Positions 1 through 48,255 of a stretch of DNA of 64,000 nt are shown here, in pieces. The number at the start of each line of letters is the position of its first letter. The first letter of the stretch is position 1. The stretch covers positions 7,456-71,455 of the forward strand of contig JBJFDC010000003.1 in the NCBI GenBank assembly GCA_051889215.1, given 5' to 3'. A program made the translations under genes and the position numbers. The notes below the pieces were generated by a model. That model was not told where the DNA came from and searched no databases. It saw only the letters and a program-made list of their open reading frames with translations. Source of the DNA: Christensenellales bacterium. Its GTDB lineage: Bacteria > Bacillota > Clostridia > Christensenellales > UBA1242.

Positions 1-1845
1 TTGTTCAAGAAGTGCTTTTGCCTCATCTGGGTCATGATAGTTTCCGTCAATATCAAAATATCCGCCGGTCTCATCAAAATATCTTCCTTGTGGGTCATAA
101 TATGTTCCATTTGGATAGCGATAATATCCCTCGCTGTCATAATAACCCTCATACTCATCAACAGGTGGCTGCTCTTCAGCAGTTTGGTCGCCAGTTGTTT
201 GTTCAATGTCAGGTGCAACAACTTGAGGTTCTTCTGAAACAAAATCTTGGACAGGTTCTTGATTTTGTTGTTCAACATTTTCTGAAGTTGTTTGTTCCTC
301 TTGGTTTTGAGGCAAGTCAATCTCTTCGGTTGAATCGCCGCCCTTCTTTCCAACAAGAGCGGATTTTGCTTTTTCGGCAGTTTCAATCAGAGCGTTTGTA
401 TAGAAATTTTCTTTTTCAGAAAGTTCACTATCAAAGTTTTTAATTCTGTCTTTGAGTTGAGAATTTTCATAAGTGAGTTCTTGGACTTGATCTTTGAGTT
501 CAACAATTTGTTGAGCATATGAATCTTTTGTTTCTGAAAGTGATTCACGTTCTTCTTTTTCTTTTGAGTTTGCCACTTTAAGCAAATTTTTGAACACTTT
601 TGTCGAATAGGTTTTGTATTCAGCAAGCATTGCTTTTTCAATATATTTTCTTCTTTCTTCAAGTTCTGCTTTCTTTTTGTCGATTTCGCTCGTCAATGCT
701 TCAAGCTCTTGGTTGAACCTGTATGTCTCTTCTGTGTTGTCTTTTTCAAGTTGAGTGAGTTTTGAGATTTCTTGGTCTTGTTGTTTTTTCAAATAGTTGC
801 CTTCAATACGGTTTGTTGAAGATTCTTGTTGCATACGGATTCTTTCAATGTTTTCTTTTGCCGTCTGCATTTTTCTTTGAATTTCACGTTGAGTGTTGTC
901 GTATGACTTTTTGAGCGTGTCGATTTGACTTTCGACTTGTTGAATTTCGGCAAGAAGTCTGTTTCTCAAACTGAGATAAATTTCAGTTTCTTTCATCGCC
1001 CTATCCAAAATTAGCGAGCCAGAAATATCAACCGAACCAAAATCATAAACCTCATGTTCAACAGCATTGCGTCTTGCTTTTTCAAGTTCCTCTTGCTCTT
1101 GGCGTGCACGTTTTTCCAAATATTCGTTGAGTGCAGGAATGCCTTTTGCAATTTCTTTCTTTGTGAACAAAACTTCAAAGTCAACATATTCTGGCATTGT
1201 TGTCACAGCTTTGTCGATGAGTCTTTGGAAAATGTGAAACGTTTGATATAGGTCAGAAAGATTTGCTGATTGCCTTGCATTTTGATATATGCCATAAATG
1301 CAGCCAATAAAAATCACAAGGGAAGGAATGATTGCAATTCTGAAAATGGCAACACTAACAAATGAGGATTGAGTTGCACTGAGTGCCAAAACTGCTGCTG
1401 AAAGCAAAATTGAAAGTGTTGCAAAAATGATTGTCAAAGCATTCATTGTTTTGATGTTGTTTTTGACCGAACTTGAACGAAGCGGTTTTTCAATGACATT
1501 GTTTGACGACATATAATATGAAGGGGCTTGTTCACGATACAACATATATTGTTGCCAGTGATATCTCAAAGTTTTTGGAACCCTTTTCATCTTCTTGTTA
1601 AATTCAATCAAATTGTTTTCATTTATGTATGAATTATTTAAAAGATAAATATTAATCTTATCAATCGCACGGATAAGTCTAAACTGATAAGCAAAATGTG
1701 ATTTAATCAAAAAATAAACCACGAACAACAGTTCTAGTCCAACAAAAATATAGAACAAAATATCAAGGTTTTTCATCGAACTTCCTATTCCACGGAAATA
1801 GGTTTCAATAAAATTAAACACCCCATCAAATAACAACTTTGACAT
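1..1845 (-). CDS. membrane-anchored coiled-coil protein, C-terminus cut by window edge (absent from ORF track)
   Basis: Checked codon by codon. The minus-strand frame is open from ATG 1845-1843 to position 1 (615 codons, no stop). AAGGAGTG lies 4 nt upstream of the ATG and an in-frame stop sits just upstream of that. The translation has N-terminal hydrophobic segments, a long Glu/Lys/Gln-rich coiled-coil-like middle and a Tyr/Gly/Asp-rich tail. Confidence 0.75.
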   Translation of the reverse strand, partial: MSKLLFDGVFNFIETYFRGIGSSMKNLDILFYIFVGLELLFVVYFLIKSHFAYQFRLIRAIDKINIYLLNNSYINENNLIEFNKKMKRVPKTLRYHWQQYMLYREQAPSYYMSSNNVIEKPLRSSSVKNNIKTMNALTIIFATLSILLSAAVLALSATQSSFVSVAIFRIAIIPSLVIFIGCIYGIYQNARQSANLSDLYQTFHIFQRLIDKAVTTMPEYVDFEVLFTKKEIAKGIPALNEYLEKRARQEQEELEKARRNAVEHEVYDFGSVDISGSLILDRAMKETEIYLSLRNRLLAEIQQVESQIDTLKKSYDNTQREIQRKMQTAKENIERIRMQQESSTNRIEGNYLKKQQDQEISKLTQLEKDNTEETYRFNQELEALTSEIDKKKAELEERRKYIEKAMLAEYKTYSTKVFKNLLKVANSKEKEERESLSETKDSYAQQIVELKDQVQELTYENSQLKDRIKNFDSELSEKENFYTNALIETAEKAKSALVGKKGGDSTEEIDLPQNQEEQTTSENVEQQNQEPVQDFVSEEPQVVAPDIEQTTGDQTAEEQPPVDEYEGYYDSEGYYRYPNGTYYDPQGRYFDETGGYFDIDGNYHDPDEAKALLEQ

Positions 1846-1951
1846 ATATCACTCCTTGTGTTTTTTTGTTAGTATATCACAAGGAATATATTTTAACTAA
1901 TATTTTTAAAATATTTTTTTGAAAAATCATAAAAAATTATGACAAAATTTA

Positions 1952-4900
1952 TTAAATATTTTGACATTTTATGAGTCTTGTGCGATTGACATCAACAACA
2001 TACACTTCATCAATTGTCTTGTTTGTCGCTTTTTCCACAGCAAGTTTATATAGGGCGAGTTGTTTTTTATATTTATTTATAAGTGTGTTTTCATCATTGA
2101 TTTTTGTGATTTTATAGTCGAAAATATAATTTTTTTCACCCAAAACCAAAAGGTCAATTTTGCCTTGAACAATGAGGTCATCACATTCTCCGCCTTCAAC
2201 GATTTCATTCTGGCGAATTTTTGCAATAAACTCCTTTTCGCGAAAGACTTTTCCGCATAAATATGGATTCAGAAGTTGAACAATTTTTAGCACATTTTCA
2301 CTTGAAATTAAAGCGGCATTTTCTTCGCCCAAAATATACAAAATCTCATGGTTTATTTGCTCCAAATTATAGTGTTTTGAAAAATCAATTTTTTCAAATA
2401 TCAAGTGATACAAAGTCCCCAAATCGTTTGCCGCAATTTCACTTGCTTCATGCTCATTTTTTTCAAATCGTTTTGGAGATGTGATTTTTGACGAGTATTC
2501 ATTTTGCTCAAATGCCAAACTTGAAACAGTGTTTTTTTGACATAAATTAATGCTGTTTTTATGAGAATAATTAAAGTTAATATATCGATTTAATTGTTCC
2601 ACAATTTCTTTTGAGCCGCGTGACAAAATTGGCATATTTTTTTCTTGTTCTTCTCGTTTTTGCTCATCGTTTTCAACAAAAAGTTCAACTGAATAGAAAT
2701 TATTTTCATCGACAACCAATGAAGAAGCGGAATGACCAATGTTTGTGATGGTATTTTCATCAAGCGAGCCCAAAATCAAATCCAAATAATTTGTTTTTGA
2801 ACGAACATCATCGTCGTCATCAATTTTTTCAACTTTTTCAAAATCACAAATTCCACAAAGAACAAGTGTGTTTTTCGCACGCGTCAAGGCGACATACAAA
2901 AGTCTCAACTCTTCCGCGATTTCTTCTTGATGATTTTTTGTCTTAATAAACTCATATTGTGGCGAATTATATTCAACCCCATCGTCATCAACATATTTGG
3001 TTGCAAAGCCAAAGTTCGGCGAATAATTTAATTTTTTTGTCGTGCCACCAAGATATAATTCGTGCTCGCAACCAAACAAAAACACAATGGGATACTCGAG
3101 TCCCTTGGAGCTATGAATCGTGTTTATTCCGACAAAGTCTCGCTCGCCCGTCGAAAAGTTTGGAGCGGTTGGTCCTTGGTCGCTTTCAAAATATTCGAGC
3201 AGCCAGCCGATTTTTGCATCAGCATTTGCCTCAATCAAAGAAAAGAATGCTTTGATTCGCTCGCATTTGCCCATGCCATTGATTTGCGACCCACAAAAGT
3301 CATTATATCCGGTGTCAAAAATCAGAAAATGCATCGCATTGCACAAACCCTCAAATTGATAAATTTTCTCAAACCTATCAAACAATTCGAAAAAGGATTT
3401 TAGTTTGTTCGCAATGTCGTCATGTTCGGACATATAATTTTGAACACATTCAACAAATTTTTCGCACCCTCTGTTTTTTATTCTGATTTGAGAAAGTTCT
3501 TCAAAATCAAGGCCGCCAAAAAATGATGATAATGCACAAACAAGGGCAACATCATTATTGCGGTCAAGCAAAAGTTTTGTCATGTTGACAACAACTGCTA
3601 TTTCTGGAAATGAACACAACATCTGATTGCTCGAGGCGACAATAGGCACGCCGCACGCAATGAGTTCTTCGCACAACGTGTCAATGCCAAAGCGAGAACG
3701 AACGAGAATTGTTATGTCTGAAAAGTTGGTGTCGCGCCAAATCCCGCATTTGTCATCATATATTTTTTGCGATTTGAGTTGCAAGATTTTTTGGGCGACA
3801 ACTCGCGCCTCATTTCTCAAGTTTTGACTTGTCAGAAATTCCGAATTGTCTTTTGTTAAATCATACACCCCGTCAAGAATGAATTCATCTTTGCTCTTTG
3901 TTTTTTGTGTCAAACATATTTGAACTGAAGGACTTTGTGACCTTGGATAGTTCGCTTGTGGAATAAATTGCGAATCGTTTTCATAATCCACACCGCTTGT
4001 GCCTTTTGTCATTATTTTTGAAAAAACCATATTTGCAAAATTGAGTATATCCTTGTTGCTTCGGAAGTTGCAATTAAGTGTTTTTGCCACGCCCCCGTTT
4101 CCGCTTGAATAATTGTTCATCATGTCTTGGAAAATTTTTGGGGTTGAGCCACGAAAGCCATAGATGCTTTGCTTGATGTCGCCAACAGTCATAATGGTTG
4201 AATTTTGCAGTTTGTCAAGAATTTGCATTTGAACAGGGTTTGTATCCTGAAATTCGTCAATAAAAACATATTTATAAGTCCCAGATATGCTCTGGCAGAT
4301 TTTTGGATTTTCCAAAAGCTTCAAAAATTTGTGTTCAAGGTCAGAAAAGTCCAAAAGATTTTTCTTCTGCTTTTGAGTTTCATATATGGTTTGACCTTGT
4401 TTGTAGATTTCGAGCAGATTGTCGATTATGTTTTTTGCGCGCTGGCTCAACATTTCTTCGCTTTCTGGGTCGCAAAACTTCAATCTGTCTTTGAGTCGTT
4501 TCAACTTTTTTGAAAACTTTGTTCGAACAAACTTGGTGTGAATGGAAAATTCGTCTTCGTCTTGAAATGAATATTGAGGCAAGCGCGACATGGAGAAAAG
4601 CGCCTGTTGATTTTGTTCAAAATCTTGTTCACTTTTTATCAAATCAAGAAAGTCGTAAATTTTTCTCAAATTGATTTTTAATTTTTCTCGCTCTTCCCCC
4701 GCATTGTTGATTAACCCTGCAAACACGTTTTTGTGGTGACTTGCAAAATCTATGATTTCTTTGTTGAAAAATTCCCTATAAATCTGCTTGCCTTCATGAG
4801 AATATAAGAATGTGGAAAGTTGTTCAATCCATGAATTTGGATTGATTTGATTTTCCAAAAAGTTATTAATTTGTTCAACAGCACAAACAATGTCATTATC

Positions 4901-5389
4901 ACTGCGAGACGTTGAAAAAAACTGCAACAAATCTTCATAGTCTTGTGGGTTTTGATTTTTAAATTTCAAAACCGCGCGTTTTATGCATTTGTTTGCCATA
5001 ATTTTTTGTTTGTCTTCAGAAACAAGTTCAAAATCGGCAGAAATTTTTGCCTCATAAAAATATTTTTTTAACATTTTTTGGCAAAAAGCGTGAATGGTTG
5101 AAATATCGCACACGCGAATGAGGTCAAGTTGTTCAACAAGTTCGGGGATTTCGTCCACTTTTTCCATCAATTTCTTTTCAAGACGTTGCGACATTTCTGT
5201 TGCCGATTGATTTGTGAATGTGAGAATCAACATTTCGTCAAGGTCGGCATGATTTTTGTCTCGACTCGTCAAAATTTTCATGATTCTTTCAATCATAACA
5301 AAAGTCTTGCCACTGCCCGCCGAGGCACTGACAATCATATTAACTTTGTTTTCGTCAATAATATTCTTTTGTTCAATAATCTCTTTCAT
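1952..5389 (-). CDS. addA: ATP-dependent helicase/nuclease AddA (UvrD-like helicase plus C-terminal PD-(D/E)XK nuclease)
   Basis: 1145 aa. Walker A motif SASAGSGKTFVM near the N-terminus, UvrD-type motifs, and a C-terminal GKIDLL...DYK nuclease motif. ATGA overlap with upstream addB. AGGAG ribosome-binding site (RBS). Confidence 0.9.
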   Translation of the reverse strand: MKEIIEQKNIIDENKVNMIVSASAGSGKTFVMIERIMKILTSRDKNHADLDEMLILTFTNQSATEMSQRLEKKLMEKVDEIPELVEQLDLIRVCDISTIHAFCQKMLKKYFYEAKISADFELVSEDKQKIMANKCIKRAVLKFKNQNPQDYEDLLQFFSTSRSDNDIVCAVEQINNFLENQINPNSWIEQLSTFLYSHEGKQIYREFFNKEIIDFASHHKNVFAGLINNAGEEREKLKINLRKIYDFLDLIKSEQDFEQNQQALFSMSRLPQYSFQDEDEFSIHTKFVRTKFSKKLKRLKDRLKFCDPESEEMLSQRAKNIIDNLLEIYKQGQTIYETQKQKKNLLDFSDLEHKFLKLLENPKICQSISGTYKYVFIDEFQDTNPVQMQILDKLQNSTIMTVGDIKQSIYGFRGSTPKIFQDMMNNYSSGNGGVAKTLNCNFRSNKDILNFANMVFSKIMTKGTSGVDYENDSQFIPQANYPRSQSPSVQICLTQKTKSKDEFILDGVYDLTKDNSEFLTSQNLRNEARVVAQKILQLKSQKIYDDKCGIWRDTNFSDITILVRSRFGIDTLCEELIACGVPIVASSNQMLCSFPEIAVVVNMTKLLLDRNNDVALVCALSSFFGGLDFEELSQIRIKNRGCEKFVECVQNYMSEHDDIANKLKSFFELFDRFEKIYQFEGLCNAMHFLIFDTGYNDFCGSQINGMGKCERIKAFFSLIEANADAKIGWLLEYFESDQGPTAPNFSTGERDFVGINTIHSSKGLEYPIVFLFGCEHELYLGGTTKKLNYSPNFGFATKYVDDDGVEYNSPQYEFIKTKNHQEEIAEELRLLYVALTRAKNTLVLCGICDFEKVEKIDDDDDVRSKTNYLDLILGSLDENTITNIGHSASSLVVDENNFYSVELFVENDEQKREEQEKNMPILSRGSKEIVEQLNRYINFNYSHKNSINLCQKNTVSSLAFEQNEYSSKITSPKRFEKNEHEASEIAANDLGTLYHLIFEKIDFSKHYNLEQINHEILYILGEENAALISSENVLKIVQLLNPYLCGKVFREKEFIAKIRQNEIVEGGECDDLIVQGKIDLLVLGEKNYIFDYKITKINDENTLINKYKKQLALYKLAVEKATNKTIDEVYVVDVNRTRLIKCQNI

Positions 5390-8300
5390 TCATTCTCCTG
5401 TTTTTCGGTCGGCTTTCTTGACAGGCGATATTTATTGCCGCCATTTTGGTCAAACTTGCAAATCCCCAAAAACTTGCAATAAACGCATGGCAATTTGTCA
5501 GTTTTTAGAGGCGAAGGACAGATATATCCATCGCAGATATTTTTTAGGTTTTGTTCCATGACGGACTTTGCCATGTCCATCATGTTTGAAAACTCTTTTT
5601 GAGTGACCATCGTCTTGTTGCGAGCAGAATATGTCCCGTCCTTTTTGAGTTTCACACCAAGCATCTTGCTGCAACCATTTTGTTTGAGATTTTGGTCAAA
5701 ATTTTCCGCCTCTTCATCAACAAAAAAGCCCAAAAATGTTTTTGCATTTTTCTTTTTTCGTTTGGCTGAAATTGGATAGTAAAGCGCTCCCACCGCTTGG
5801 ACTCCCTCACTTTGCTCAAGCGCTTTCAAATAGACGAAGATTTGAATTTTGTTGCCAAAGATAATATCTTGAACATTGTGTTCAGTTTTGCCAGTTTTGT
5901 AGTCGACAACGACAATTTTGTTTTCAAACTTGTCAACCCTGTCAACAATTCCACCGAATGCAATTTTTCGCCCACCAAAATCAAATTGCATTTTTCCTCC
6001 GCCAACATATTTTTCGACATATTCAATTTTAAATTTGGAATTTTCCTGTTCTTCCAAGATGTCGCGGATTGTCTGTTTGCATTCTCTTTTGAGCGAATTT
6101 AGAATTGAAGAAAATTTTTTGTAAGAGAAGAAAATTGCATATTTTTCGTCAATTGCAATTTGCTTGAAAAACTCATCGACAAAACAATCGACATCGGATT
6201 GTGGTCTGATAAAATATTTTTCCAAACACAAATGAACAATGTTCCCAAGCGTTGCCTCATCAAGGTCAATTGGCTTGTTTTCGTCAAGTTTGAGTCCATA
6301 TTTCAAGAAAAACATAAACGGACATTTTGCATAAGTTTCAAGAGCAGAAACAGAAAACTTGTCATTTGCAAAAAACAAATCGTTTTTCTTTAAATTTGGA
6401 GTGATGTTCGCCGATTGAGAATTGTTGACAAGTTTTTCTATGCTTGGGTCATTTTTCTTGAGAACATCAAACAACGAATTAAATTGTTGCTCACAAGAAA
6501 ATTTTGGATTTTGAATGTAAGCAACAAGTTGCTCTCTCGCACGTTTTGCCGAACATATTTCTTTTGCGAAATCATCACTTTGAACATCTCCGGCAAATCC
6601 AATTTTTTGTGCACTTTCCCCAAACATTTTCATGAGTCCCAAAACAAATGTTGATTCGGCGAGTTTTTTTCCATCATCAGACAGCGAAACCCATGAAACA
6701 AACAATTTTTGTTTTGGAATTGAAAGAACAGAACACAGTTTGAGGCGTTTTCTCAAATTGATTGTTCTTATTGTCGGGTCAATTTTAACTTTGTTTGCGT
6801 GCCGTGCGATATCTTTGTCCGAAAGAAGCCCAACATCTTTTTGAAAGTCCGGCATTTTGTCTTGATTTGCTCCACACAAAAAGAAAATCTTGTCACTTTC
6901 AAAAAAACTTTTTGAAACATCTCCAACAAAAACCTGGTCAACCCCCAAAGGGACACCTCCCAGTTTTGTCCCAGCAAACACGTTGTTTAACAAAACGACA
7001 AACTCTGAAAAACTCAAATTTTCATCTTTTGTTTCTTGCTCAAAAGTTTTGAGAATATCAAGAATTTTTTCATTCAGATTTTCATAAATTTTTTGATTTT
7101 CAACATCTTGTTCTTTGACAAAATAATCTCGAATTTTTTGAGTGGTTTCCAAAACGCAAAAAGCATCAAAAATTCTCCTTATAAAATCCACGAAATCTTT
7201 TCCGCAAAGTTTGTCCGAACTGCCAACATTTTTCACTGCAAGCGAGTCCAAAATTGACTTGATTTTTTCATATATTTTTGCGTCATTTTGATTCTGAAAT
7301 TTATGCAAATTGAGGTCATCGTCAATCAACCTATATCTATCAATAAATCGACAAATTTCAAAGCACTCTTCATTTGTTAGATTTGCATATACATTGGAAA
7401 ATATATCGTAAAGAATTGATGTGTCATTTTCTTGTATGTATTGAAAAATCAAATTCAAAAATTCAACAGGTTTTGTTTGTGAAAGTGTTTTGTCGGTGTC
7501 AAAAAAACATGGGATTTCGTAGTCGTCAAAAATTCTTTTGGCACAATTATAATTGCCGTCGAGGTCACTGATTCCAACAACACAGTCGCAAAATCTTCCG
7601 CCCGACACCACATGACTTTTTATTTCTTTTGCAACCGCTTCAATTTGGGCTTGATTTGTTGAACACTCCCAAAAGTGCGCAAAATCTTTTATTTCAAATT
7701 TGTGCGGGTTGGAAAGATATATGTTGGTCGAAATAAGGTTGGAAACAAAATTTGAAGATGTCGCAAATTTTTCTTCAATCTCAACATCTTGGTCTTTGGC
7801 GATGGATTTTAGGTTGTTATATAGTTGCGTGTCATAAACAAATTTATTTTTTTGATTTGACTGCGGATAGGAAAGCGCAAACTCAACACTTTTTGCTTTT
7901 TTGAGAAGTGTTCTAACAATGTTGAGTCCTTGATTTGTCATGCTGTCAAAAAATGCAAAATATATCCTCGCGTTATCAAGCTGCGCGCTCGGGAGATTTT
8001 GAACAAAAAGATTCAAAAAATCCGCCCCATCAATTCCATGTTTTTGCTTTTCTTCATAGTTTTTGTATATCAAATGAATGTCATGGATTTTATCGTCTTG
8101 CAAGCATTCTTCAAGTGTATATGGCGAAATCTCGCTGGTTTTGAGTTGAGATATGGTGTTTTTTATCTGTTGCAAAAACGAAACATCAATATTTGATTTT
8201 GGAAAAAACTTGAAATTGTTTTTTTCTTCATACACCGCCTTGCCCAAAGCAATGAGTTGACTGTTTGACGAAAGTGATTTTGGCAACACGTTTTGCTCTT

Positions 8301-8526
8301 TGAGAACGAGTGAGGCAAATCTGTTTATGCCCATCACTTTTATGTTTAGAGTTGATGAAATGTTGAGCTTGTTGAACACAAGTTTTTCGGTTATAAGTGA
8401 GAATCTGTCGGGAACAATGATGATTTGATCTTCTTCATATCGTGAAATATTCGGAGCAATGTCCAAAACAACCTGCTCCGATGCACAAGTGATGTCAGTT
8501 CCCTTTGTCAAAATTAATTTGCTCAC
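5386..8526 (-). CDS. addB: helicase-nuclease AddB (inactive helicase fold, C-terminal Fe-S nuclease domain)
   Basis: 1046 aa, sits immediately 5' of addA. The C-terminus has the cysteine pattern (C...CxxC...C) and a DYK-type nuclease motif typical of AddB. The start is a GTG with no clear RBS, so the start is less certain. Confidence 0.85.
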   Translation of the reverse strand: MSKLILTKGTDITCASEQVVLDIAPNISRYEEDQIIIVPDRFSLITEKLVFNKLNISSTLNIKVMGINRFASLVLKEQNVLPKSLSSNSQLIALGKAVYEEKNNFKFFPKSNIDVSFLQQIKNTISQLKTSEISPYTLEECLQDDKIHDIHLIYKNYEEKQKHGIDGADFLNLFVQNLPSAQLDNARIYFAFFDSMTNQGLNIVRTLLKKAKSVEFALSYPQSNQKNKFVYDTQLYNNLKSIAKDQDVEIEEKFATSSNFVSNLISTNIYLSNPHKFEIKDFAHFWECSTNQAQIEAVAKEIKSHVVSGGRFCDCVVGISDLDGNYNCAKRIFDDYEIPCFFDTDKTLSQTKPVEFLNLIFQYIQENDTSILYDIFSNVYANLTNEECFEICRFIDRYRLIDDDLNLHKFQNQNDAKIYEKIKSILDSLAVKNVGSSDKLCGKDFVDFIRRIFDAFCVLETTQKIRDYFVKEQDVENQKIYENLNEKILDILKTFEQETKDENLSFSEFVVLLNNVFAGTKLGGVPLGVDQVFVGDVSKSFFESDKIFFLCGANQDKMPDFQKDVGLLSDKDIARHANKVKIDPTIRTINLRKRLKLCSVLSIPKQKLFVSWVSLSDDGKKLAESTFVLGLMKMFGESAQKIGFAGDVQSDDFAKEICSAKRAREQLVAYIQNPKFSCEQQFNSLFDVLKKNDPSIEKLVNNSQSANITPNLKKNDLFFANDKFSVSALETYAKCPFMFFLKYGLKLDENKPIDLDEATLGNIVHLCLEKYFIRPQSDVDCFVDEFFKQIAIDEKYAIFFSYKKFSSILNSLKRECKQTIRDILEEQENSKFKIEYVEKYVGGGKMQFDFGGRKIAFGGIVDRVDKFENKIVVVDYKTGKTEHNVQDIIFGNKIQIFVYLKALEQSEGVQAVGALYYPISAKRKKKNAKTFLGFFVDEEAENFDQNLKQNGCSKMLGVKLKKDGTYSARNKTMVTQKEFSNMMDMAKSVMEQNLKNICDGYICPSPLKTDKLPCVYCKFLGICKFDQNGGNKYRLSRKPTEKQENE

Positions 8527-8564
8527 ACAATCATTTTATCACACACGCGTTTTTTGACAAAACA

Positions 8565-9428
8565 TTATGCTTTTAATTTTTGTTTATTCTTTTTGGGAAT
8601 TGTGTTGGCAAATTTTTTCAATTCGTGCATTTTGTTTGATTCAACAAAATTTTCAACCTCTTTGCTGCGTTTTTCTTGCAATCTAATTTTTAGATTTTTG
8701 TTCTCGCTTTTTAGTTTTTCCAAACTTGATGAAAGTTCTTTTATTTGACTGTCTTTTGAAGACAGGGCGACATATGCTTTGGCGAGATTATCGCTCGCGC
8801 TTTTCATTTCCAATCGATTTTGCACCTCTGCTTGCTCACATGCAGCACGCTTGACAAGTCTGACGAGCCCCATAAACAACACTTCAATATCCTTGTCGGA
8901 AAGCGAACCTTTTTGTTTTGGCATGACCAAAATGTTGTTCATTTTTGGGGACGCGTTTAACGTGCTTGGAACAACAATCCCCTCTCGCTTTAATTCGTCA
9001 ACACATTCTGAAAATAGCCGCTGATTTCCCTTCAAAACATTGCGATATTTGTTTTGAAATCTAATCATTTTTCCAAGGTCATCGCCCGACAAAGTCAAAC
9101 ACGCTTTGCGCACACTCATTCCCTTTGCACATAGTCGCAAAATGTTTTTCACAACTTCTTTTTCTTCTTTTTGGTCAAAAGGTGTTTGCTTGATTTTTTC
9201 ATGTTTTGACAAATCAATTTTGAGTCTTTGACATTTGCTCTTGTTGTTTTGCAACTCTCCCAGTTCCAGGTAGTAATAATTTCTGACACTGTTTGGCTTT
9301 CTTTTTGTCAAGTCCGCATAATTTTTAAAAATGGACAAAAGCGAGAGATGTTTTTCTTTCCCCGCCTCAACAAAACAAAATAGTTTTTTTATTTCTTCAT
9401 CTTTCCATGAACAATAAATTGTTTTCAT
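8565..9428 (-). CDS. Myb/SANT-like (RsfA-family-like) DNA-binding protein with C-terminal coiled coil
   Basis: The N-terminal W..EE...L...V......F.......R...SVRNYY pattern resembles RsfA/Myb-like HTH domains. The C-terminus is a Lys/Glu coiled coil. Start moved to the ATG at 9428, which is preceded by GGAGG. Confidence 0.55.
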   Translation of the reverse strand: MKTIYCSWKDEEIKKLFCFVEAGKEKHLSLLSIFKNYADLTKRKPNSVRNYYYLELGELQNNKSKCQRLKIDLSKHEKIKQTPFDQKEEKEVVKNILRLCAKGMSVRKACLTLSGDDLGKMIRFQNKYRNVLKGNQRLFSECVDELKREGIVVPSTLNASPKMNNILVMPKQKGSLSDKDIEVLFMGLVRLVKRAACEQAEVQNRLEMKSASDNLAKAYVALSSKDSQIKELSSSLEKLKSENKNLKIRLQEKRSKEVENFVESNKMHELKKFANTIPKKNKQKLKA

Positions 9429-9517
9429 AAATCCTCCAACACCATTATTGACATTGTCTTGTGATTTATACATATTTATGACATCATAAAAAAACGCTTG
9501 GCATCATACTTTATGTT

Positions 9518-10486
9518 ATGGAGCGAACAAGGTTTAAGTTTTCTGCAAAAACACCTTGCCTTGTCTTTTGTGACAAGGTTTTTCTTGGTGAAATAGATAA
9601 AAACGTTTGTGCAAAACTTGAGATTTTGGAAGGACAAACAAAATATATTGAAGTTTTTCCAAAATCGACAAAAGATGTCACCTATTTTATTCCTTTTGCT
9701 TTTGAGTTGTCGTCCAACACAAAATTATCTTCAAACTATGTCATCTATGATTTGCTCGATGCAAATTATGAGATTGAAATAAAACCTCGCCTCGAATTGC
9801 ATATGCCAATGTCTTTTGACAATATTTTTGAAGAAGAAAAAAGCGGCACGAATATATGCGTCCTTTCTTCTTCTGTCACAAAAATCATTCTTCAAAACAA
9901 AAAGAACAAGGTTGAATTTTGCCCAAAATGCGTGTTGCGTGACATTGCGTGCAAATCATTTTCTTGGGATAACTCCGACTATTTTGTCCTCACTGCAAAA
10001 ACTCAAGAAAACTTGCAATATCTGTTTGTCGCAAATCTCAACAATATTGATTGCTGCATTCAAAAATTTTGCGACGACATAACTTTTGATTTGCCCAAAA
10101 TCTCCACCCTGAATTTTTGTCATGACTTCTATGAGCACGCGATTATAAGCAAATATGAATTAAATCCAAGCGGACTAAAAAAACTTGATTGTTATTCCAG
10201 CCGAAAAGAACAAACATCTTTTTTGACCCCAACCCGAAAAGACACCGCAAAAGTTTTTTTTGAATGTGTGAAGGTGCGAGACTATGAACTTGCTCGGTTT
10301 TTGATGACAAAACAACTCTCGGAACTTTTGAGTGACCAACACCTAAAACGTTTTTTCCCAAAATTCGACAAAATAAAACTCGCTCCCGAGCGAGATGTTG
10401 TTTTGCTTGTTGGCGAAGAGAAAACATATTTTCAACTATCATTCGTTGACGGAAAAATTGATAATATAGAAATATTTGATAGATAA
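9518..10486 (+). CDS. hypothetical protein (322 aa, Cys-rich, no recognised domain)
   Basis: Long ORF, divergent from the RsfA-like gene. I recognise no motif. Confidence 0.6.
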   Translation: MERTRFKFSAKTPCLVFCDKVFLGEIDKNVCAKLEILEGQTKYIEVFPKSTKDVTYFIPFAFELSSNTKLSSNYVIYDLLDANYEIEIKPRLELHMPMSFDNIFEEEKSGTNICVLSSSVTKIILQNKKNKVEFCPKCVLRDIACKSFSWDNSDYFVLTAKTQENLQYLFVANLNNIDCCIQKFCDDITFDLPKISTLNFCHDFYEHAIISKYELNPSGLKKLDCYSSRKEQTSFLTPTRKDTAKVFFECVKVRDYELARFLMTKQLSELLSDQHLKRFFPKFDKIKLAPERDVVLLVGEEKTYFQLSFVDGKIDNIEIFDR

Positions 10487-10531
10487 TTTGACATTATCAA
10501 AAAAACAAGAGATAATAATATAGAGGTTGTT

Positions 10532-10759
10532 ATGGAAGATAAAAAATTCACTTGTTGCGATTGTAAAAAAGAATTTGTTTGGACTGTTGAAAATCAAAAA
10601 TTTTTCAAAGACAACAAAATTGACAAAGAGCCCGTTCGCTGCCGCGAGTGTGCAATAATTTTGAGAGACAAGCGCAAACAAGAAGCAAAAAAAGAAAAAC
10701 AAAACAAAAATCAGGCCGAAGTCAAACCTGAAAAACAAACTGAAAAAAACAAAAAATAA
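10532..10759 (+). CDS. small zinc-ribbon protein with Lys-rich tail
   Basis: CxxC...CxxC with F.W..E.Q.F......+.P.RC.EC resembles the 'probable zinc-ribbon' family. Followed directly by a terminator. Confidence 0.65.
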   Translation: MEDKKFTCCDCKKEFVWTVENQKFFKDNKIDKEPVRCRECAIILRDKRKQEAKKEKQNKNQAEVKPEKQTEKNKK

Positions 10760-10781
10760 TGGTTCCGCCATTATTTTTTTA
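10755..10781. terminator. bidirectional rho-independent terminator
   Basis: AATAATGG-TTCCG-CCATTATT (8-bp stem), flanked by an A-run and a T-run. Lies between convergent genes. Confidence 0.6.
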
Positions 10782-10829
10782 TTTTTGATTGAGTATTTTG
10801 AGATTTTAAACAAAAGAAACGCCAACAAC

Positions 10830-11798
10830 TTAACTCAATGTAAATCCCTGTTCTTCATCTGAAAAATAGTCATCAGGATATAATTCGCTATTTTCTTCTT
10901 TTTCGCCAGACTCATTGTTTTGAATTCTGTTGAGAATATTGTTGAGATGTGTGAAGTCGCGCTGATTTTGATTTGAATATTCTTGCATCAAAGTTCCCTC
11001 ATCTCCATAAAGAGTGTTCGCAAGTTCAATTTCTGGAGTTTGACCAAGTTTGTCAATTTCACTTTGAAGGCCTTTAAAAGTTTTCATAAAAAGTTGACCT
11101 TCTTTTTGGAAAAACACTGGCATCATATAAGATTTTTCGCCATTCTTTTCAATAAAAGTTTGAACAGTGCCAACAAACACAATTCCCTCTTCCGAAAGAT
11201 TTTTCATGACATCTTCAAAAAATTCTGTATTGATTTCAATCGCTTGAATGCTTGAACCTTGGAGGTGTGCAACAAGTGAACTCACTCCGTCGCTATCCGA
11301 GCCCTCTTGTTCAATATCAATTTGTGCAAAATTATTGTTGTAAACAACACAAAACACTTTTCCGTTTTCTGGTTTTATCAAAATTTTGAGTTGAGTGTCT
11401 TTTGAAGAGAATGCATCGCTTCTCATGTTTGTTTCAAACACACCCAAAACATCAAAATCGCCTTCAATCTCAAAACCCAACTTCTGCTCAATTTGCGGTC
11501 TAATTGTGTCTTTCAAAAAATTATATGCATAATTTTTGTTTTGTTCGTCAATTTGGTCTTGTTGCTTATTTTCGTCATCAACCTCGCCATTGTTTGGAAA
11601 AAGATCGCCTTTTTGTGGCAATTTGATTTCTGTTGAGTCTGCACGATTGACATAATTGTATAATTGCGTCGCCGCTTCTGGCAAAACATAGAGAAGAACA
11701 ACCGCCGACATAAGAGAATACGCCACTTTTTGAGTGGTGGTCAGTTTGCATTTTTTTGGCTTTCTTGAAAGCATTTTGTTGTAATATTTTTTTGCCAT
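10830..11798 (-). CDS. hypothetical membrane-anchored protein
   Basis: One N-terminal hydrophobic segment, then an acidic soluble domain. The track start (11843) is TTG, so I prefer the ATG at 11798. Start uncertain. Confidence 0.55.
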   Translation of the reverse strand: MAKKYYNKMLSRKPKKCKLTTTQKVAYSLMSAVVLLYVLPEAATQLYNYVNRADSTEIKLPQKGDLFPNNGEVDDENKQQDQIDEQNKNYAYNFLKDTIRPQIEQKLGFEIEGDFDVLGVFETNMRSDAFSSKDTQLKILIKPENGKVFCVVYNNNFAQIDIEQEGSDSDGVSSLVAHLQGSSIQAIEINTEFFEDVMKNLSEEGIVFVGTVQTFIEKNGEKSYMMPVFFQKEGQLFMKTFKGLQSEIDKLGQTPEIELANTLYGDEGTLMQEYSNQNQRDFTHLNNILNRIQNNESGEKEENSELYPDDYFSDEEQGFTLS

Positions 11799-11867
11799 AA
11801 TTTCTACGATACTAATTTTAACATAAATTGAATTTGTTTGCAATACAAAAAATAACCGCCCAAGCAG

Positions 11868-14800
11868 TTATTTTTTTGTTTGTTTTCTCTTTTTGTTGAA
11901 ACTTATAAACAAAGCGCATAGTGCAACGCCCAAAATCACTCCAACACAAACCGCAACAGCAATATCAATCCAGTTTTCGTTGTCGCACACAACGATAAAT
12001 TCAGAAAAGGTTGAAGTTGAAACAAGCACGTTATCGCCTTGAATTTTATATGCAAGTTCAACATAGTCGCCTGTTGCATTTTTCCCAAAAACATGAATGT
12101 TGTTGAGATTGTTCAAATTTTTCAAGTTGATTTTCATGTCCAATGCTTTGTCCAAAACAAGTGTGTTGCCACTCGCATCAAACAGTCCAACACTCATGCT
12201 TTGAACAATTTTTTTGCCAGCATATTCGTTGCCTATTTGCAAATCTTTGACAGAAAGCACTGTTCCATATTTCATTGCGGTTGAACTGTATGTTGATACT
12301 TCAACATTTTGATTTTCTAGTGTCGCATATGTTATGTCGGCATATAGTCCGGTTGGCATGATAAGATTATAATTTTTTGCTTTCGAGCCAACAAGAGAAA
12401 ATCCTTGAAGACTAACTGCGATATCATTTCCGGGTTCAATAGATGCGAAGTTGGCGCAAGCATTTTTGTCAAAATCAAGCATGATTTCATTATCGACAAG
12501 TCCAGAAACGATTGGATTTTTTATTTTGCAAGTTGTTGTGCCATCATATGTTTTGTCCAACACTTCAACATTGAGTTTGACGTCTTTTGCGAGAATGACC
12601 AAAATTGAATTTCGCGTGTGAACCTCATAGTTTTGGTCCATGCTGACAACATTGAGGACATATTCGCCAACATCTTCACTCGCGTCTCTTTGGACCTCCC
12701 ATTCAAGTTGTTCACCCAAAACCAACTCTCCTTGCAAGATTTGCAAATTGAAACAAGGGTCTGGATTGGAATAAATCTTTTGATTTGCACCGAGCGAAAC
12801 GACAAGAGCTCTTGGCAAAATGTCGTAGTATGCTTGAATGTATCTGACCTTGTAGTTTCTTCCAAGATTGATGTTGCACCTTATTGGATATCGACCCGCA
12901 TCTTCTCCTTCTGTCTTATATAGTCCGCCCGTCAAAGTGTCGCCCGCCAAAATTTCTCCGTCAAGGACATAATCAAATTCGGTTGAAATTTCTTCTCCAT
13001 AAATTGAAGAAACATTTTGAGTTGAGACAACAACTTCGCGTTGATTGATTGAAAGATTATTTCCAACATAACTGATTTCATAATTTGGATTATTTAGACT
13101 TGAAAGAAGCGGATATTTCCCAACATTTTCATAAATTTTTACGCCGACATTTTCTCTATATATGCCACCTGAAAGATCATTTGGATTAACCAGTGTTCCG
13201 CTCGTTATTTCATAAACAAATTCTGGATCGCTTTCGCCATAAATTTTTGATGCAGGAATTGCAGTGACTTCAATTTGTCTTGGCAAGATTGTCAACAACC
13301 CACAGGTGTATTTGAATTTGTAGTTTGCTGGAGTTGAAAGAGTTCCAACCTCAATCACATATTCTCCAACATCTTCGCCATATCTTCTTTTCGCTTTGCC
13401 AGAAAGGACAACATTTTTGTCCCCCGACAAAATTTCATAGTCAAAAACCGGATCGCTGTCACCATAATATTTTGTGACGTCCAAAATTTTGATGTTGAGT
13501 TCTTGAGCATAAATACAAAGTTTTCCGGGAACAAAGGTCAAAATGTAATTCCCTCCAGCCGTGAGCGTGCCTTGACTGAACATATATTCGCCAACATCTT
13601 CGCCCGCCTCGCGCGAGATTTCACCACAAAGAATGTCGCCAAGTTCTTCATCGAATTGAAGAGAACCATAATAGAGGACAAATTCAACAACTGGATCATT
13701 TTCTGAAAAATATTTGAATGTGTCTTCGGCTTTAACAGAAATCTCACAAGGAATAATTTCCAATTTTCCAGAAACAAAATTTATATTATAGTGAGGGTCG
13801 TCAAGCGAATCATATGTTATTTTGTATGTGCCGACATTTTCTCCCTTTTCTCTTTTGAGTTTAATCGTTGAAGAAACTCCTGGAACAATATTTGTTTGAC
13901 TGAATGAAAATATCGGGTCGTTTTCACCATAAATTTTTGAATGAGAATCTGCTTCTATTTCAATCTCGCGTTTTGTTATTGTTAGCACTCCGCTTGAAAT
14001 GAATTCAATTTCATAATTGTCACCAAAAGAGATTGAGCCGCGCGTATAGCAATATCTCCCAATTTCTTCACCCATTTCTCGTGTTGCAGAGCCAATCAAA
14101 AGTCCTTCAAATGTTTGTCCAAAAACAAATTCGTTCTCGTCGCAAACATATTCAAAATCTGGGTCAGCATCTCCAAACTGTTTTTGAGCTGAACAAATTG
14201 AAACTTGAATTTTTTTGGCTTTTATTTCAAGCGAAACGTCGCTTGCAAGACTCAATTCATAATTTGTGTTTTGCAATCTCATTGATTGCGTGATTTCATA
14301 GTTATATTTTCCAACATCTTCGCCCTCAAATCTTTGCAGCTGTCCATAAATTTGCTCATTTTCAATCACACCTTCAAACTGCAAATTAAGTTGAGGATCG
14401 TCATCTCCATATGTTTTTTGAAGCGAATCTGCCGTTATTTTTACTTTTTTTGCAAAAATTGATGCCATAATCAAATTTTCGTCATATTTCAGAACGTAAT
14501 TTTGTTTGTTGGAACCTTCAATTTCAATTTTGTTTATTATGATGTTTTTGTTATCCCCAACATTGCTGTCCTCAAATTTTAAATCCGTCTGAAGAACAAT
14601 GCCATCTTTTTCAAGTGTGTTTTTGAGAGTGAACGAATATTCGACGTCTGTCGTTCCGTCATAAGTTTTGTCATTTGCAACGAACTCAACATACGCATTT
14701 CTTGCGATGATTTCAAAATTTGCGGGGATAAATTCAATGTTGTAGTTCTCATTATGCAAAGTGCCTTGCTCAATTTGATATAAACCAACATTTTCGCCAA

Positions 14801-47264: not shown

Positions 47265-47293
47265 TTGACACAACAATTTTATTTTGTTATTAT
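47265..47293 (+). promoter_or_regulatory. promoter TTGACA-N17-TATTAT upstream of the tRNA-like array
   Basis: Perfect -35 (47265-47270), 17-nt spacer, TATTAT at 47288-47293. No coding gene follows. Confidence 0.55.
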
Positions 47294-47330: not shown

Positions 47331-47520
47331 AACAACTTAATAATGGAATGGGAGCACCGCTCTCGCGCAAGCCCGTCGTGCTCGATGCCGCAAAGCAAGT
47401 TTGCTCATTGTGCACCACCCTGTCGCCGAGCGAAGCGAACGCCATTCACACGCAAACTTCCCCGCCGCGTGAATATAAGGTGGGGGTCGGAGGGAACCAC
47501 CGACCAAAAAATTAGTTCTC
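47331..47520 (+). other. tRNA-Ile-derived unit A: D arm replaced by a 61-nt GC-rich segment, 52-nt insert in the anticodon loop, altered T arm
   Basis: Shares the leader TCAACAACTTAATAA plus TGGAATG (47344-47350), GCACCACCCTG (47412-47422) and ATAAGGTGGGGGTCGG (47475-47490) with the real tRNA. The intervening segments are foreign and GC-rich. Confidence 0.7.
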
Positions 47521-47640
47521 AACTTAATAATGGAATGTAGCTCAGCAGGTTAGAGCACCACCCTGGGCGAAGCGTTCGTAGCGTAAGCGGAGAACATAAG
47601 GTGGGCGACCCCACCGGAACCCAAAACTTTGGTGTTCAAC
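47521..47640 (+). repeat. tRNA-Ile-derived unit B1 (120 bp): exact tRNA 5' half, 30-nt anticodon-loop insert, non-tRNA 3' part
   Basis: 47531-47565 is identical to tRNA positions 1-35. The insert is 47566-47595, and ATAAGGTGG resumes at 47596. Then come the hairpins GGTGGGCGACCCCACC and GAACCCAAAACTTTGGTGTTC. Confidence 0.85.
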
Positions 47641-47760
47641 AACTTAATAATGGAATGTAGCTCAGCAGGTTAGAGCACCACCCTGGGCGAAGCGTTCGTA
47701 GCGTAAGCGGAGAACATAAGGTGGGCGACCCCACCGGAACCCAAAACTTTGGTGTTCAAC
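47641..47760 (+). repeat. tRNA-Ile-derived unit B2, identical to B1
   Basis: 120/120 identity by direct comparison of the two 120-nt blocks. Confidence 0.85.
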
Positions 47761-47770
47761 AACTTAATAA

Positions 47771-47847
47771 TGGAATGTAGCTCAGCAGGTTAGAGCACCA
47801 CCCTGATAAGGTGGGGGTCGGTGGTTCGAGTCCACTCATTCCAACCA
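47771..47847 (+). tRNA. tRNA-Ile (anticodon GAT)
   Basis: Hand fold:
- acceptor TGGAATG / CATTCCA
- D stem GCTC / GAGC
- anticodon stem CCACC / GGTGG, loop CTGATAA
- variable region GGGTC
- T stem GGTGG / CCACT, loop TTCGAGT
- discriminator A, encoded CCA
It has an unusual U1:A72 first pair. Confidence 0.9.
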
Positions 47848-47852
47848 AAAGC

Positions 47853-47886
47853 AAGCACTTAACAAAGTTAAGTGCTTTTCTTTTTT
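47853..47886 (+). terminator. rho-independent terminator after tRNA-Ile
   Basis: AAGCACTTAAC-AAA-GTTAAGTGCTT (11-bp stem), followed by TTCTTTTTT. Confidence 0.8.
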
Positions 47887-48031
47887 GTGGATAAATTGAC
47901 TTGCAAATTTAGACACTAAAAAAAGAAAAAGCATTTGCATTGAAAATGCGAATGCGAGCTTTTGAGAAAAAACAACTGGACGAGAACCATATTTAGTATT
48001 ATCCCCAAAAACCTATGTCGCACAAGCGAAC

Positions 48032-48105
48032 ATAAGGTGGGGGTCGGTGTCCTCTCCGCTTTGCTCCGAGTCGCTTTCGCTGCGCGAGTCCACTCATTCC
48101 AATCA
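48032..48105 (+). pseudogene. stand-alone tRNA-Ile 3' half (from the anticodon loop ATAA to an ATCA end) with a 37-nt GC-rich insert in the T loop
   Basis: ATAAGGTGGGGGTCGGTG (48032-48049), then the insert (48050-48086), then AGTCCACTCATTCCAATCA (48087-48105). Apart from the insert it matches the real tRNA at all but one position. Confidence 0.75.
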
Positions 48106-48111
48106 AAAACT

Positions 48112-48137
48112 AATCGCTCAAAACGAGTGATTTTTTT
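48112..48137 (+). terminator. rho-independent terminator after the tRNA 3'-half relic
   Basis: AATCGCTC-AAAAC-GAGTGATT (one G.U pair), running into a T7 tract. Confidence 0.55.
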
Positions 48138-48220
48138 ATTATATCCCCCACCTTATTATAATTAAAATTATTCCGTTTAATCGAGTTTTAGACAGTTAAA
48201 AAGGTGGTGGAATAAGTGAC

Positions 48221-48255
48221 AAAAAAACAGCACTAAAAACAATGCTGTTTTAATT
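48221..48255 (-). terminator. possible terminator of the MerR-family gene
   Basis: AAACAGCA-N10-TGCTGTTT with a short T-run on the minus strand. A weak candidate. Confidence 0.4.

Follow-up and report, generated by a model that had tools for sequence, protein, structure and literature searches.

A tRNA-Ile operon and the units derived from it

The window analysed here, a 64,000-nt stretch of DNA from a Christensenellales bacterium, carries an intact tRNA-Ile(GAU) gene that is both preceded and followed by truncated and expanded copies of itself, all on the plus strand. The operon begins at a sigma-70-type promoter (47265..47293; TTGACA, 17-nt spacer, TGnTATTAT), which is 90-94% conserved in two related loci, L001 and L002. 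Behind it lies a tRNA-Ile-derived leader unit, the A unit (47344..47505), comprising the acceptor 5' strand TGGAATG (47344-47350), a GC-rich segment that replaces the D arm, the stretch GCACCACCCTG (47412-47422), a 52-nt A-type two-hairpin cassette (47423-47474), the core ATAAGGTGGGGGTCGG (47475-47490) and the fold-back cap GAACCACCGACC (47494-47505). Two B units follow. B unit 1 (47520..47639) begins with an 11-nt leader, ends with a spacer and holds the tRNA-Ile 5' half (positions 1-34; 47531-47565), a 30-nt B insert between G34 and A35 (47566-47595), tRNA positions 35-44 as ATAAGGTGGG (47596-47605) and the cap hairpin GGTGGGCGACCCCACC (47600-47615); B unit 2 (47640..47759), with its B insert at 47686-47715, is 100% identical to it. 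The intact gene itself (47771..47847) has a U1-A72 pair and an encoded CCA, scores 70.4 bits, and is followed by an intrinsic terminator made up of an 11-bp stem and a T run (47853..47886).

Downstream of the operon, a degenerate paralogue of the promoter and leader region (47881..47952) has a TTGACT box and lacks a convincing -10 box. The trailer unit, or relic, starts (48003..48049) with a cap, CCCCAAAAACCTATG, that can pair with CATAAGGTGGGG, and continues through the 18-nt core ATAAGGTGGGGGTCGGTG (tRNA positions 35-52; 48032-48049), a 36-nt T insert in place of G53-U54-U55-C56 (48050..48085), and the 3' T-loop/T-stem and acceptor 3' strand of tRNA-Ile, GAGTCCACTCATTCCAATCA (48086..48105), where CCA reads TCA. 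The relic therefore consists of tRNA positions 35-52 and 57-76, placed behind the intact gene in direct orientation, and shares with that gene a direct repeat of 24 nt (96% identical); only 238 bp, without cargo or ORF, extend from the tRNA to the relic 3' end. The trailer has its own intrinsic terminator (48112..48139), after which comes a further cap:core-like hairpin (48144..48224), in which TCCCCCACCTTAT, a reverse-complement match to the start of the core, is able to pair with AAGGTGGTGG (48201-48210).

A consensus scan found no convincing promoter for the relic, and the strong terminator at 47853-47886 stands between it and the tRNA. Rfam 15 returned RF00005 (tRNA) alone, both in the window (gathering threshold and E ≤ 10) and in 12 related loci (gathering threshold), the rest being weak chance matches. 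BLAST against phages and plasmids matched the tRNA body alone, and pattern scans of viral contigs for insert-bearing units found none. A protein-database search with a spurious ORF of the relic gave no match, whereas searches with ORFs from two related loci, L084 and L097, did give matches.

Complementarity of the B and T inserts

An earlier note on this DNA had described the B insert as nearly the reverse complement of the relic insert, and its description is confirmed: the string GCGAAGCGTTCGTAGCGTAAGCGGAGA occurs at 47567 and 47687 and TCTCCGCTTTGCTCCGAGTCGCTTTCGC at 48053, the B insert sits between G34 and A35 and the relic insert in the T loop of the 3' fragment, and 23 of 29 positions match. 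Aligned globally with the reverse-complemented relic insert, the B insert scores 14 (23 matches in 29 columns), a value reached by none of 2000 shuffles (mean -3.1 ± 2.8), while alignment in direct orientation scores -8. The note had also called for an RNA-RNA interaction prediction with shuffled controls. The predicted duplex between the 30 nt at 47566-47595 and the 36 nt at 48050-48085 has 26 pairs and an energy of -38.2 kcal/mol, against -19.4 ± 3.8 for shuffled sequences, none of which (0/500) came as low. Because the self-structure of both inserts is slight (-4 to -6.5 kcal/mol), this duplex is strongly favoured. Duplexes hold two to three G-U pairs each, and their minus-strand versions are weaker than the plus-strand ones by 2-5 kcal/mol.

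The potential persists in longer predicted transcripts. Cofolding one full B unit with the relic gave a ddG of -28.5, compared with -16.7 ± 3.2 when the relic insert alone was shuffled, and in the predicted dimer an intermolecular 7-bp acceptor helix forms as well. In the predicted fold of an 840-nt read-through transcript, the insert of B unit 2 pairs with the T insert over 24 bp and the relic 3' strand pairs with the A-unit acceptor strand over 7 bp, although minimum-free-energy folds of this kind are unreliable, and this one misses the acceptor stem of the real tRNA. The predicted fold of the L097 locus has the same topology.

Relatives of the locus and known elements that resemble it

The same layout (promoter, leader units, intact tRNA-Ile(GAU) with terminator, trailer with terminator) is shared by several lineages of uncultured gut Clostridia whose acceptor stems differ. 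A leader unit in these loci is a tRNA-Ile 5' half with an anticodon-loop insert and a fold-back cap, and a trailer is a relic with an insert in place of G53-C56 and a terminator of its own; every unit lies on the tRNA strand, and a terminator closes the trailer in every lineage. The leader unit of the window, and in most cases its trailer too, recur in L001 and L002, where NrdG is 74-78% identical, and in the metagenome loci L085-L096. Between lineages, B inserts are 87-97% and T inserts 86-94% identical, as against only 49-60% for the terminators and non-tRNA flanks. L002 and L092 have no trailer, L095 has a reduced one and L090 a truncated one, and the smaller lesions of trailers are lineage-specific and fall in the tRNA-derived parts (TCA for CCA in the window, 1-nt indels in L001 and L096). 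Unit copy number also differs among strains. Fold-back caps, which are short inverted copies, are found at nearly every truncated tRNA end, and the A-type hairpins are almost purely Watson-Crick with 3-4-nt loops; the A-type cassette shows compensatory change in at least six lineages.

A second lineage, represented by L084 and L097, has different insert sequences. L097 carries a pair of leader units ahead of an intact tRNA, then a terminator and a trailer, with the acceptor stem AGAGATA and a gap of only about 35 nt between terminator and trailer. Its inserts have no sequence kinship to B or T, yet they are complementary to each other (-46.0 kcal/mol; shuffles -26 ± 4, 0/500 as low). Pairing is largely specific to the locus: cognate pairs range from -32 to -46 kcal/mol and most non-cognate ones from -10 to -29, the exceptions being two cross-lineage combinations with the L084 T insert that reach about -41. 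In four loci, drawn from two independent lineages, the predicted arm helix measures 23-28 bp, and arm lengths co-vary across lineages (30/36, 45/47 and 65/55 nt). Within the window lineage no compensatory co-evolution of B and T was found, and the L001 B insert pairs better with the window T insert than with that of L001 itself. In L084, L102 and L103 both arms flank the 18-nt core inside a single unit, which in L084 takes the place of the intact tRNA gene.

The tRNA-Ile locus is, besides, a hotspot for the integration of islands. A 3.4-kb AbiEi/AbiEii island lies in L084 inside a two-insert unit that L102 keeps intact, with a common block of about 34 bp (hairpin 2 and core) at both junctions; another island, 7 kb or more in length, begins in L090 directly after ...CCACCCTG; and a 1.4-kb indel at the tRNA 3' end distinguishes L096 from L002. 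Pfam and NCBIfam searches found no integrase or other recombinase beside any locus examined, the L084 and L090 islands included.

Several known elements share features with the inserts. Group I introns have a core recognisable by covariance models, a length above about 200 nt, U at position -1 and G at omega. The inserts have no such core, Rfam finds no intron in them and the -1 nucleotide is G34 rather than U, so that a group I intron or its remnant was rejected. The likeness is one of position: group I introns sit in tRNA anticodon loops (CUU/.../AAAA, position 34/35) and in the T loop of tmRNA (bioRxiv 10.1101/2020.01.27.920355), the same two loops and, in the anticodon loop, the identical position, whereas the present inserts are 30-65 nt long, lack a catalytic core and, in the case of the T insert, delete G53-C56. 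The likeness of the A-type cassette to a hammerhead (CUG...GA-[G...C hairpin]-GAA...A-U hairpin) was rejected because each core strand has three to four extra nucleotides and Rfam gives no match. Inverted REP doublets of the REPIN/BIME type likewise combine inverted GC-rich segments, a short spacer and a long hairpin in an AT-rich genome; here, by contrast, the segments are not dispersed but restricted to tRNA-Ile-derived units, and the spacer is tRNA sequence. REPINs, K-turns, integron attC sites and IS200/IS605-type ends were rejected on spacing, missing conserved boxes or non-dispersal.

Candidate explanations and their consequences

The earlier note had offered two readings of the complementarity, and neither survives as proposed. 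One was that a single mobile GC-rich mini-element (of MITE, REP or GC-cluster type) had entered the anticodon loop and the T loop of separate tRNA copies in opposite orientations, which would suit two reverse-complementary segments of similar length, the more so as foreign DNA enters exactly these loop positions in relatives. The search for further copies that the note had proposed speaks against it: there are 0 others in the 64-kb window, and the 13 B-module copies in 814 kb of related loci all lie inside tRNA-Ile units, with none at a non-tRNA site. Target-site duplications are, moreover, lacking, the T insert takes the place of 4 nt instead of being cleanly inserted, and the ends of the two copies differ. 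As the anticodon-loop and T-loop sites hold another complementary pair in the second lineage, at least two modules would be needed, each inserted twice at those two sites, and we consider this reading very improbable. The other was a bacterial split tRNA, in which the GC-rich segments would unite 5'-half and 3'-half RNAs into a functional tRNA-Ile. Split tRNA genes of Nanoarchaeum equitans have GC-rich complementary segments attached to their 5' and 3' halves, together with a bulge-helix-bulge junction, a splicing endonuclease and a ligase. The trans-pairing part of this idea has fared well: the potential is strong and specific, is accompanied by the 7-bp acceptor helix of the predicted dimer, is conserved in relatives and recurs with different sequences on 5'-half-like and 3'-half-like RNAs. 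A joint like that of Nanoarchaeum, on the other hand, is missing from this bacterial locus. The relic segment lies in the T loop, after positions 35-52, and not directly 5' of a 3' half; there is no common split point (1-34/insert/35-44 in B, which thus carries its own positions 35-44, and 35-52/insert/57-76 in the relic); and with the segments in different loops the helix juxtaposes G34 with G57, so that no tRNA can be rebuilt. Add to this that the relic lacks G53-U54-U55-C56, ends in TCA and is absent in some strains, and that an intact tRNA-Ile(GAU) stands at 47771-47847 between the B units and the relic in the same operon, and a split tRNA is scarcely credible.

There are two further alternatives. 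Repeated breakage and recombination at tRNA-Ile, followed by fold-back or template-switch repair, could have left inverted duplications (the caps and the reverse-complementary inserts) as non-functional by-products, kept looking fresh by gene conversion with the neighbouring tRNA; the capping of nearly all truncated pieces, the palindromic A-type hairpins with their tight loops, the varying unit copy number and the small trailer lesions all fit such a history. Neither the B nor the T insert derives from the tRNA, so that gene conversion with it cannot be what preserves them, and yet they are 86-97% identical across species amid non-coding DNA that is only 49-60% identical. Derivation of the T insert from the B insert by a simple fold-back or template switch was rejected, the predicted junctions (...GGTG+GTTCTCCGC and ...CGCC+CAGGGTGG) being unlike those observed, and the compensatory changes in the A-type cassette also count against a by-product, which we judge quite improbable. 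The main rival, possible though on the unlikely side, is a recombination site: the arms would be dyad-symmetric half-sites, or retained ends of an integrative element, on either side of an 18-bp core (positions 35-52) that serves as crossover or recognition segment for islands targeting tRNA-Ile, with leader units and relic as attL- and attR-like products and complementarity persisting because one protein binds both arms or because they fold as single-stranded DNA. The islands in L084 and L090 and the indel between L096 and L002 favour it, as do the fold-back caps and the location of the junctions within the anticodon and T loops, which Williams reportedly described in 2002 as classic integrase sublocations in tRNA genes. 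G-U pairs are essentially absent from the A-type hairpins, whose near-pure Watson-Crick pairing fits symmetry at the DNA level as well as it fits RNA. Displaced tRNA gene fragments are well known to mark island ends, at the tDNA targets of Islander-type genomic islands (PMC4383910, PMC9897764), and the relic resembles these in being a 3' fragment from the anticodon loop that forms a downstream direct repeat of the intact gene at a locus that varies between strains and where islands abut or interrupt units in relatives. It differs from them in that neither integrase nor cargo lies in the 238 bp of the window, that 5'-half units also occur upstream, within a transcribed leader, and that the loop expansions are conserved, structured and mutually complementary, unlike ordinary att scars. 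The lack of a recombinase beside any locus examined tells against a recombination site too, as do arm sequences wholly different between lineages, which is unusual for protein-recognised sites, and the fact that none of the single-insert hybrids expected from a simple attP x attB reaction was seen.

Because the same layout recurs round the tRNA-Ile gene in many uncultured gut Clostridia, the B and relic inserts are probably the two strands of one helix, and not a jumping element or a split tRNA. The account that we tentatively favour is that they form the arms of one conserved inverted repeat, housed in a family of tRNA-Ile(GAU)-derived non-tRNA, non-coding units that flank the real gene in this clade, and that they probably act through pairing of leader and trailer RNAs. 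Leader units between promoter and tRNA would supply the 5' half with an expansion behind G34, followed by positions 35-44 and a fold-back cap; the trailer beyond the tRNA terminator would supply a cap, positions 35-52 and, beyond an expansion that stands in for 53-56, the 3' strands with a separate terminator. The arms may once have flanked the 18-nt core in one unit, or may have evolved as a leader/trailer pair, with recombination between tandem units interconverting the two layouts. On the plus strand, the leader of the tRNA-Ile precursor and a trailer RNA, made by terminator read-through or from a weak promoter of its own, would pair in the cell into a helix of 23-28 bp, alongside a 7-bp acceptor-like helix between the leader 5' strand and the trailer 3' strand, and the whole might serve as a processing or stability stalk round the tRNA, or as an sRNA/sponge pair. 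Against RNA pairing it must be said that the trailer lies behind a strong terminator, lacks a convincing promoter, is missing, reduced or truncated in some loci and carries lineage-specific lesions in its tRNA-derived parts, and that B and T show no compensatory co-evolution in the window lineage.

Precedents exist for such an arrangement: leader/trailer stalks of rRNA operons are cleaved by RNase III, and spacer RNAs of tRNA operons act as sponges (3'ETS-leuZ). As in these, a stable RNA here lies between complementary segments at least 20 bp long, the predicted duplex exceeds 20 bp, and the tRNA-linked non-coding segments are conserved; unlike them, an intrinsic terminator separates tRNA and trailer, and the arms lie within tRNA-derived pseudo-units. 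A bolder version, which we would call unlikely, is a bipartite or read-through nested tRNA-Ile-derived RNA in which a 7-bp acceptor-like helix ending in NCCA and a 24-28-bp helix of the anticodon-loop and T-loop expansions enclose the real tRNA, for example as a natural RNase III stalk or an external-guide-like RNase P substrate. It would constitute a new class of processing or regulatory RNA in gut Clostridia, with the hairpin cassette doubling as a landing site for defence islands.

On any of these accounts, the units break short-read assemblies, yield spurious "hypothetical proteins" in databases and could be mis-annotated as tRNA pseudogenes. A role at the DNA level would make them a structured attachment site of an unusual type, where defence islands such as AbiE come to land. 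Should the pairing prove functional, a clade of gut Clostridia that are abundant but uncultured surrounds its tRNA-Ile(GAU) gene with tRNA-derived RNAs whose helices co-evolve, which would represent an undescribed mode of tRNA processing or regulation and a new family of tRNA-derived non-coding RNAs.

A tRNA-Ile locus with leader and trailer units

The segment is from the chromosome of an anaerobic Firmicute (~36% GC) and carries an [FeFe]-hydrogenase operon, nrdD, nrdG and leuS, with the tRNA-Ile locus placed downstream of nrdG. A strong sigma-70 promoter (47265-47293) precedes the A unit (47344-47505), a tRNA-Ile-like leader unit in which the D arm is replaced, a 52-nt insert follows G34, and a core of positions 35-50 leads into a fold-back cap. 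In each of two 120-bp B units, 100% identical to one another (47520-47759), the tRNA 5' half (positions 1-34) is followed by a 30-nt insert, then by positions 35-44 and lastly by a cap hairpin. The sole real tRNA of the window, tRNA-Ile(GAU), lies at 47771-47847 and the first terminator at 47853-47886. Beyond it come a degenerate duplicate of the promoter/leader region and then the trailer unit, or relic, made up of a cap, positions 35-52, a 36-nt insert in place of G53-C56 (the T insert) and GAGTCCACTCATTCCAATCA; another terminator lies at 48112-48139. Caps, which are short inverted repeats of a fragment's own end, close off nearly all of the truncated tRNA pieces. Past the relic's terminator, at 48144-48224, the core start recurs as its reverse complement (TCCCCCACCTTAT), which can pair with AAGGTGGTGG ~45 nt downstream, giving a further cap:core-like hairpin.

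The A unit is reproduced by same-species contigs from independent runs, which then break within the B repeat; two independent short-read assemblies of the species (L081 4880-4909; L082 at its contig end) stop at the same point in the first B repeat. Tandem units break assemblies, and copy number in the window may therefore be uncertain.

The closest reference genomes, L001 and L002 (NrdG identity to the window of 78% and 74%), even so share with the window the promoter and a B-type leader unit, present once or twice, and their tRNA is identical; L001 has a trailer as well, bearing a T insert of the same kind. A pattern scan of metagenomes yielded L085-L096 as extra members of the window lineage, and L084 as a single distant relative. 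The arrays are in places annotated as spurious antisense ORFs of 100-170 aa, which have entered public protein sets as hypothetical proteins (P0001, P0002, P0004, P0029, P0037, P0038, P0040, P0049 and P0051), and these gave access to more lineages, whose acceptor stems differ: L097, L098, L102 and L104 (AGAGATA), L100 and L101 (AGAGATG), L106 (AGGATCA), and L099, L103 and L105. L097 is a full analogue of the window, its order being two leader units (44-45-nt anticodon-loop insert), intact tRNA-Ile, terminator, trailer (47-nt T-loop insert) and second terminator. Rfam recognised tRNAs and nothing else over the window and related loci. The comparative set is small, with two clear independent lineages having leader and trailer and one weaker cis case, and the metagenome contigs are short, many ending within repeats.

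The tRNA-Ile(GAU) of the window, L097, L100, L104 and L106 has an unusually AT-rich acceptor stem (U1-A72 in the window). This stem differs almost completely by lineage (TGGAATG, AGAGATA, AGAGATG, AGGATCA), the remainder of the tRNA is nearly invariant, and the pseudo-units always carry the local acceptor version. Several lineages co-transcribe tRNA-Ile behind another tRNA, namely tRNA-Cys (L100, L104, L105, L106) or tRNA-Ala (L103); where leader units are present in L100 and L103-L106, they sit between the two tRNAs, and the units are therefore internal spacers of tRNA operons as well as 5' leaders. At L104 753-1292, a 23S rRNA gene is divergent from the tRNA-Cys/leader unit/tRNA-Ile operon and starts a few hundred bases upstream; no 16S gene was seen near it, so the rRNA genes may be unlinked.

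Complementarity of leader and trailer inserts

The B inserts, whose cores begin at 47567 and 47687, are complementary to the relic insert, whose core begins at 48053, to a degree well above chance. Against the reverse complement of the relic insert, the B insert matches in 23 of 29 columns with an alignment score of 14 (shuffle mean -3.1 ± 2.8; 0/2000 shuffles reached 14), and the direct-orientation alignment scores -8. Both the insert strings quoted in the earlier note and the reverse-complement match it described are borne out. The full inserts of 30 nt (47566-47595) and 36 nt (48050-48085) are predicted to form an RNA duplex of 26 pairs at -38.2 kcal/mol, as compared with -19.4 ± 3.8 kcal/mol for shuffled inserts, 0/500 of which were as low. 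When one B unit is cofolded with the relic transcript, the complex is 28.5 kcal/mol more stable than the separate monomers; with only the relic insert shuffled, the difference is 16.7 ± 3.2 kcal/mol. Self-structure of the B and T inserts is small (-4 to -6.5 kcal/mol), every duplex includes 2-3 G-U pairs, and the plus-strand version is favoured over the minus-strand one by 2-5 kcal/mol. In the predicted fold of an 840-nt read-through transcript, the insert of the second B unit pairs with the T insert over 24 bp and the acceptor strand of the A unit with the 3' strand of the relic, a topology also found for L097, these folds being only indicative because minimum-free-energy folds miss the acceptor stem of the real tRNA. 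No compensatory co-evolution of the B and T inserts was found inside the window lineage.

Complementarity between inserts belongs to the system as a whole and not to any single sequence; the analysis shows the complementarity itself, its specificity, its conservation, its recurrence and its energetics. Predicted cognate duplexes elsewhere in the window lineage reach -39.6 kcal/mol (L096) and -32.3 kcal/mol (L001). In the L084/L097 lineage, both inserts are unrelated in sequence to B and T and the cognate duplex reaches -46.0 kcal/mol (0/500 shuffles as low); a third sequence pair, in L103, gives -30.7 kcal/mol (7/500). Most non-cognate combinations fall between -10 and -29 kcal/mol, with two cross-lineage exceptions of about -41 kcal/mol against the L084 T insert (L100_A and L106_r). 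Arm lengths co-vary by lineage (30/36, 45/47 and 65/55 nt). Both arms flank the 16-18-nt core within one unit in L084 (unit 2), L102 and L103, and are divided between leader units and trailer in the window, L001, L096 and L097.

Constraint on the inserts and insertion at the locus

Among the window, L002/L096 and L001, identity is 87-97% for the B insert and 86-94% for the T insert; in the same comparisons the terminators and non-tRNA flanks show 49-60% and are essentially unalignable. The commoner A-type anticodon-loop insert (47423-47474 in the window, and 11 further units) follows the pattern NN-GCCGA-[hairpin 1]-GAAC-GCC-[hairpin 2] between G34 and A35 of tRNA-Ile-like units, and occurs in the window A unit, L001, L084, L096, L097, L099, L100, L104 and L105. 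Two-sided change is seen in 7/7 pairs of hairpin 2 and 3/5 pairs of hairpin 1. In these hairpins 89% of cells are paired and the covariation score is 0.50, as against 32-48% and 0.06-0.12 with partner columns slid. The stems are almost purely Watson-Crick, G-U pairs being nearly absent.

This locus doubles as a hotspot for insertions. The two-insert unit, intact in L102 (reverse strand of 2560-2880), is interrupted in L084 (~660-4050) by a 3.4-kb AbiEi/AbiEii toxin-antitoxin island, with a ~34-bp block (hairpin 2 plus core start) repeated at both junctions and no integrase detected on the island. A truncated trailer in L090 is followed, right after its ...CCACCCTG, by an island (6750-13871; at least 7 kb) that carries FtsK/SpoIIIE-like, DnaB-like and WYL-domain genes; the small anticodon-loop inserts sit at this very nucleotide position. 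A 1.4-kb indel at the 3' end of the tRNA distinguishes L096 from L002. In L087 (reverse strand, ~4790-5000), a tRNA-Ile copy breaks off after ATAAGGTG; ~75 nt of unrelated DNA then lead into another, slightly divergent tRNA-Ile allele (TGGATTG...CAATCCA), a layout which suggests that the tRNA-Ile gene was replaced by incoming DNA.

Possible roles of the paired arms

The earlier note had proposed either a mobile GC-rich mini-element or a Nanoarchaeum-like split tRNA whose halves pair in trans. The mobile module is very improbable: no dispersed copies occur in the window, all 13 B-module copies in 814 kb of related loci lie in tRNA-Ile units, and different modules would each have had to insert twice at the same two sites. 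A split-tRNA joint is contradicted by the anatomy, and we give this reading practically no credence. Because the arms sit in different loops, the helix brings G34 next to G57; the relic is without G53-C56, its CCA reads TCA, and it is absent from some strains; the B units retain their own positions 35-44, and an intact tRNA-Ile lies between them and the relic. What survives is the idea of trans-pairing: RNAs of the 5' units and of the 3' relic could pair, and something maintains their ability to do so.

We are fairly confident that the two segments are arms of one conserved inverted repeat in tRNA-Ile-derived non-coding units flanking the real gene. The most likely mechanism, which we put forward tentatively, is that plus-strand RNA of the tRNA leader pairs with trailer RNA, the duplex serving either as a stalk for processing or stability or as an sRNA/sponge pair, and that an acceptor-like 7-bp helix can form beside it; we infer here that the trailer is transcribed and that pairing takes place in vivo and has an effect. 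It is rather unlikely that the arms instead serve at the DNA level, either as a site of recombination or as the ends of an element. This reading draws support from the hotspot behaviour, from where in the loops the inserts lie and from the Watson-Crick-only hairpins; it is weakened in that no recombinase was found near any locus examined and the arm sequences turn over. Neutral debris of fold-back and gene conversion is an improbable source, contradicted by the conservation of the non-tRNA inserts.

By sequence, the relic qualifies as a displaced tRNA fragment of the kind known from tDNA integration sites (PMC4383910; PMC9897764), but stands without island or integrase. Ordinary att scars lack the conserved, structured and mutually complementary loop expansions of the present units, and are not, like the B units, 5'-half units within a transcribed leader. 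Group I introns occupy the same two loops, although the present inserts are not introns. The leader/trailer pairing shares its logic with rRNA processing stalks, co-transcription of leader and trailer being only putative here, and a new tRNA-derived RNA family is a real, if unproven, possibility.
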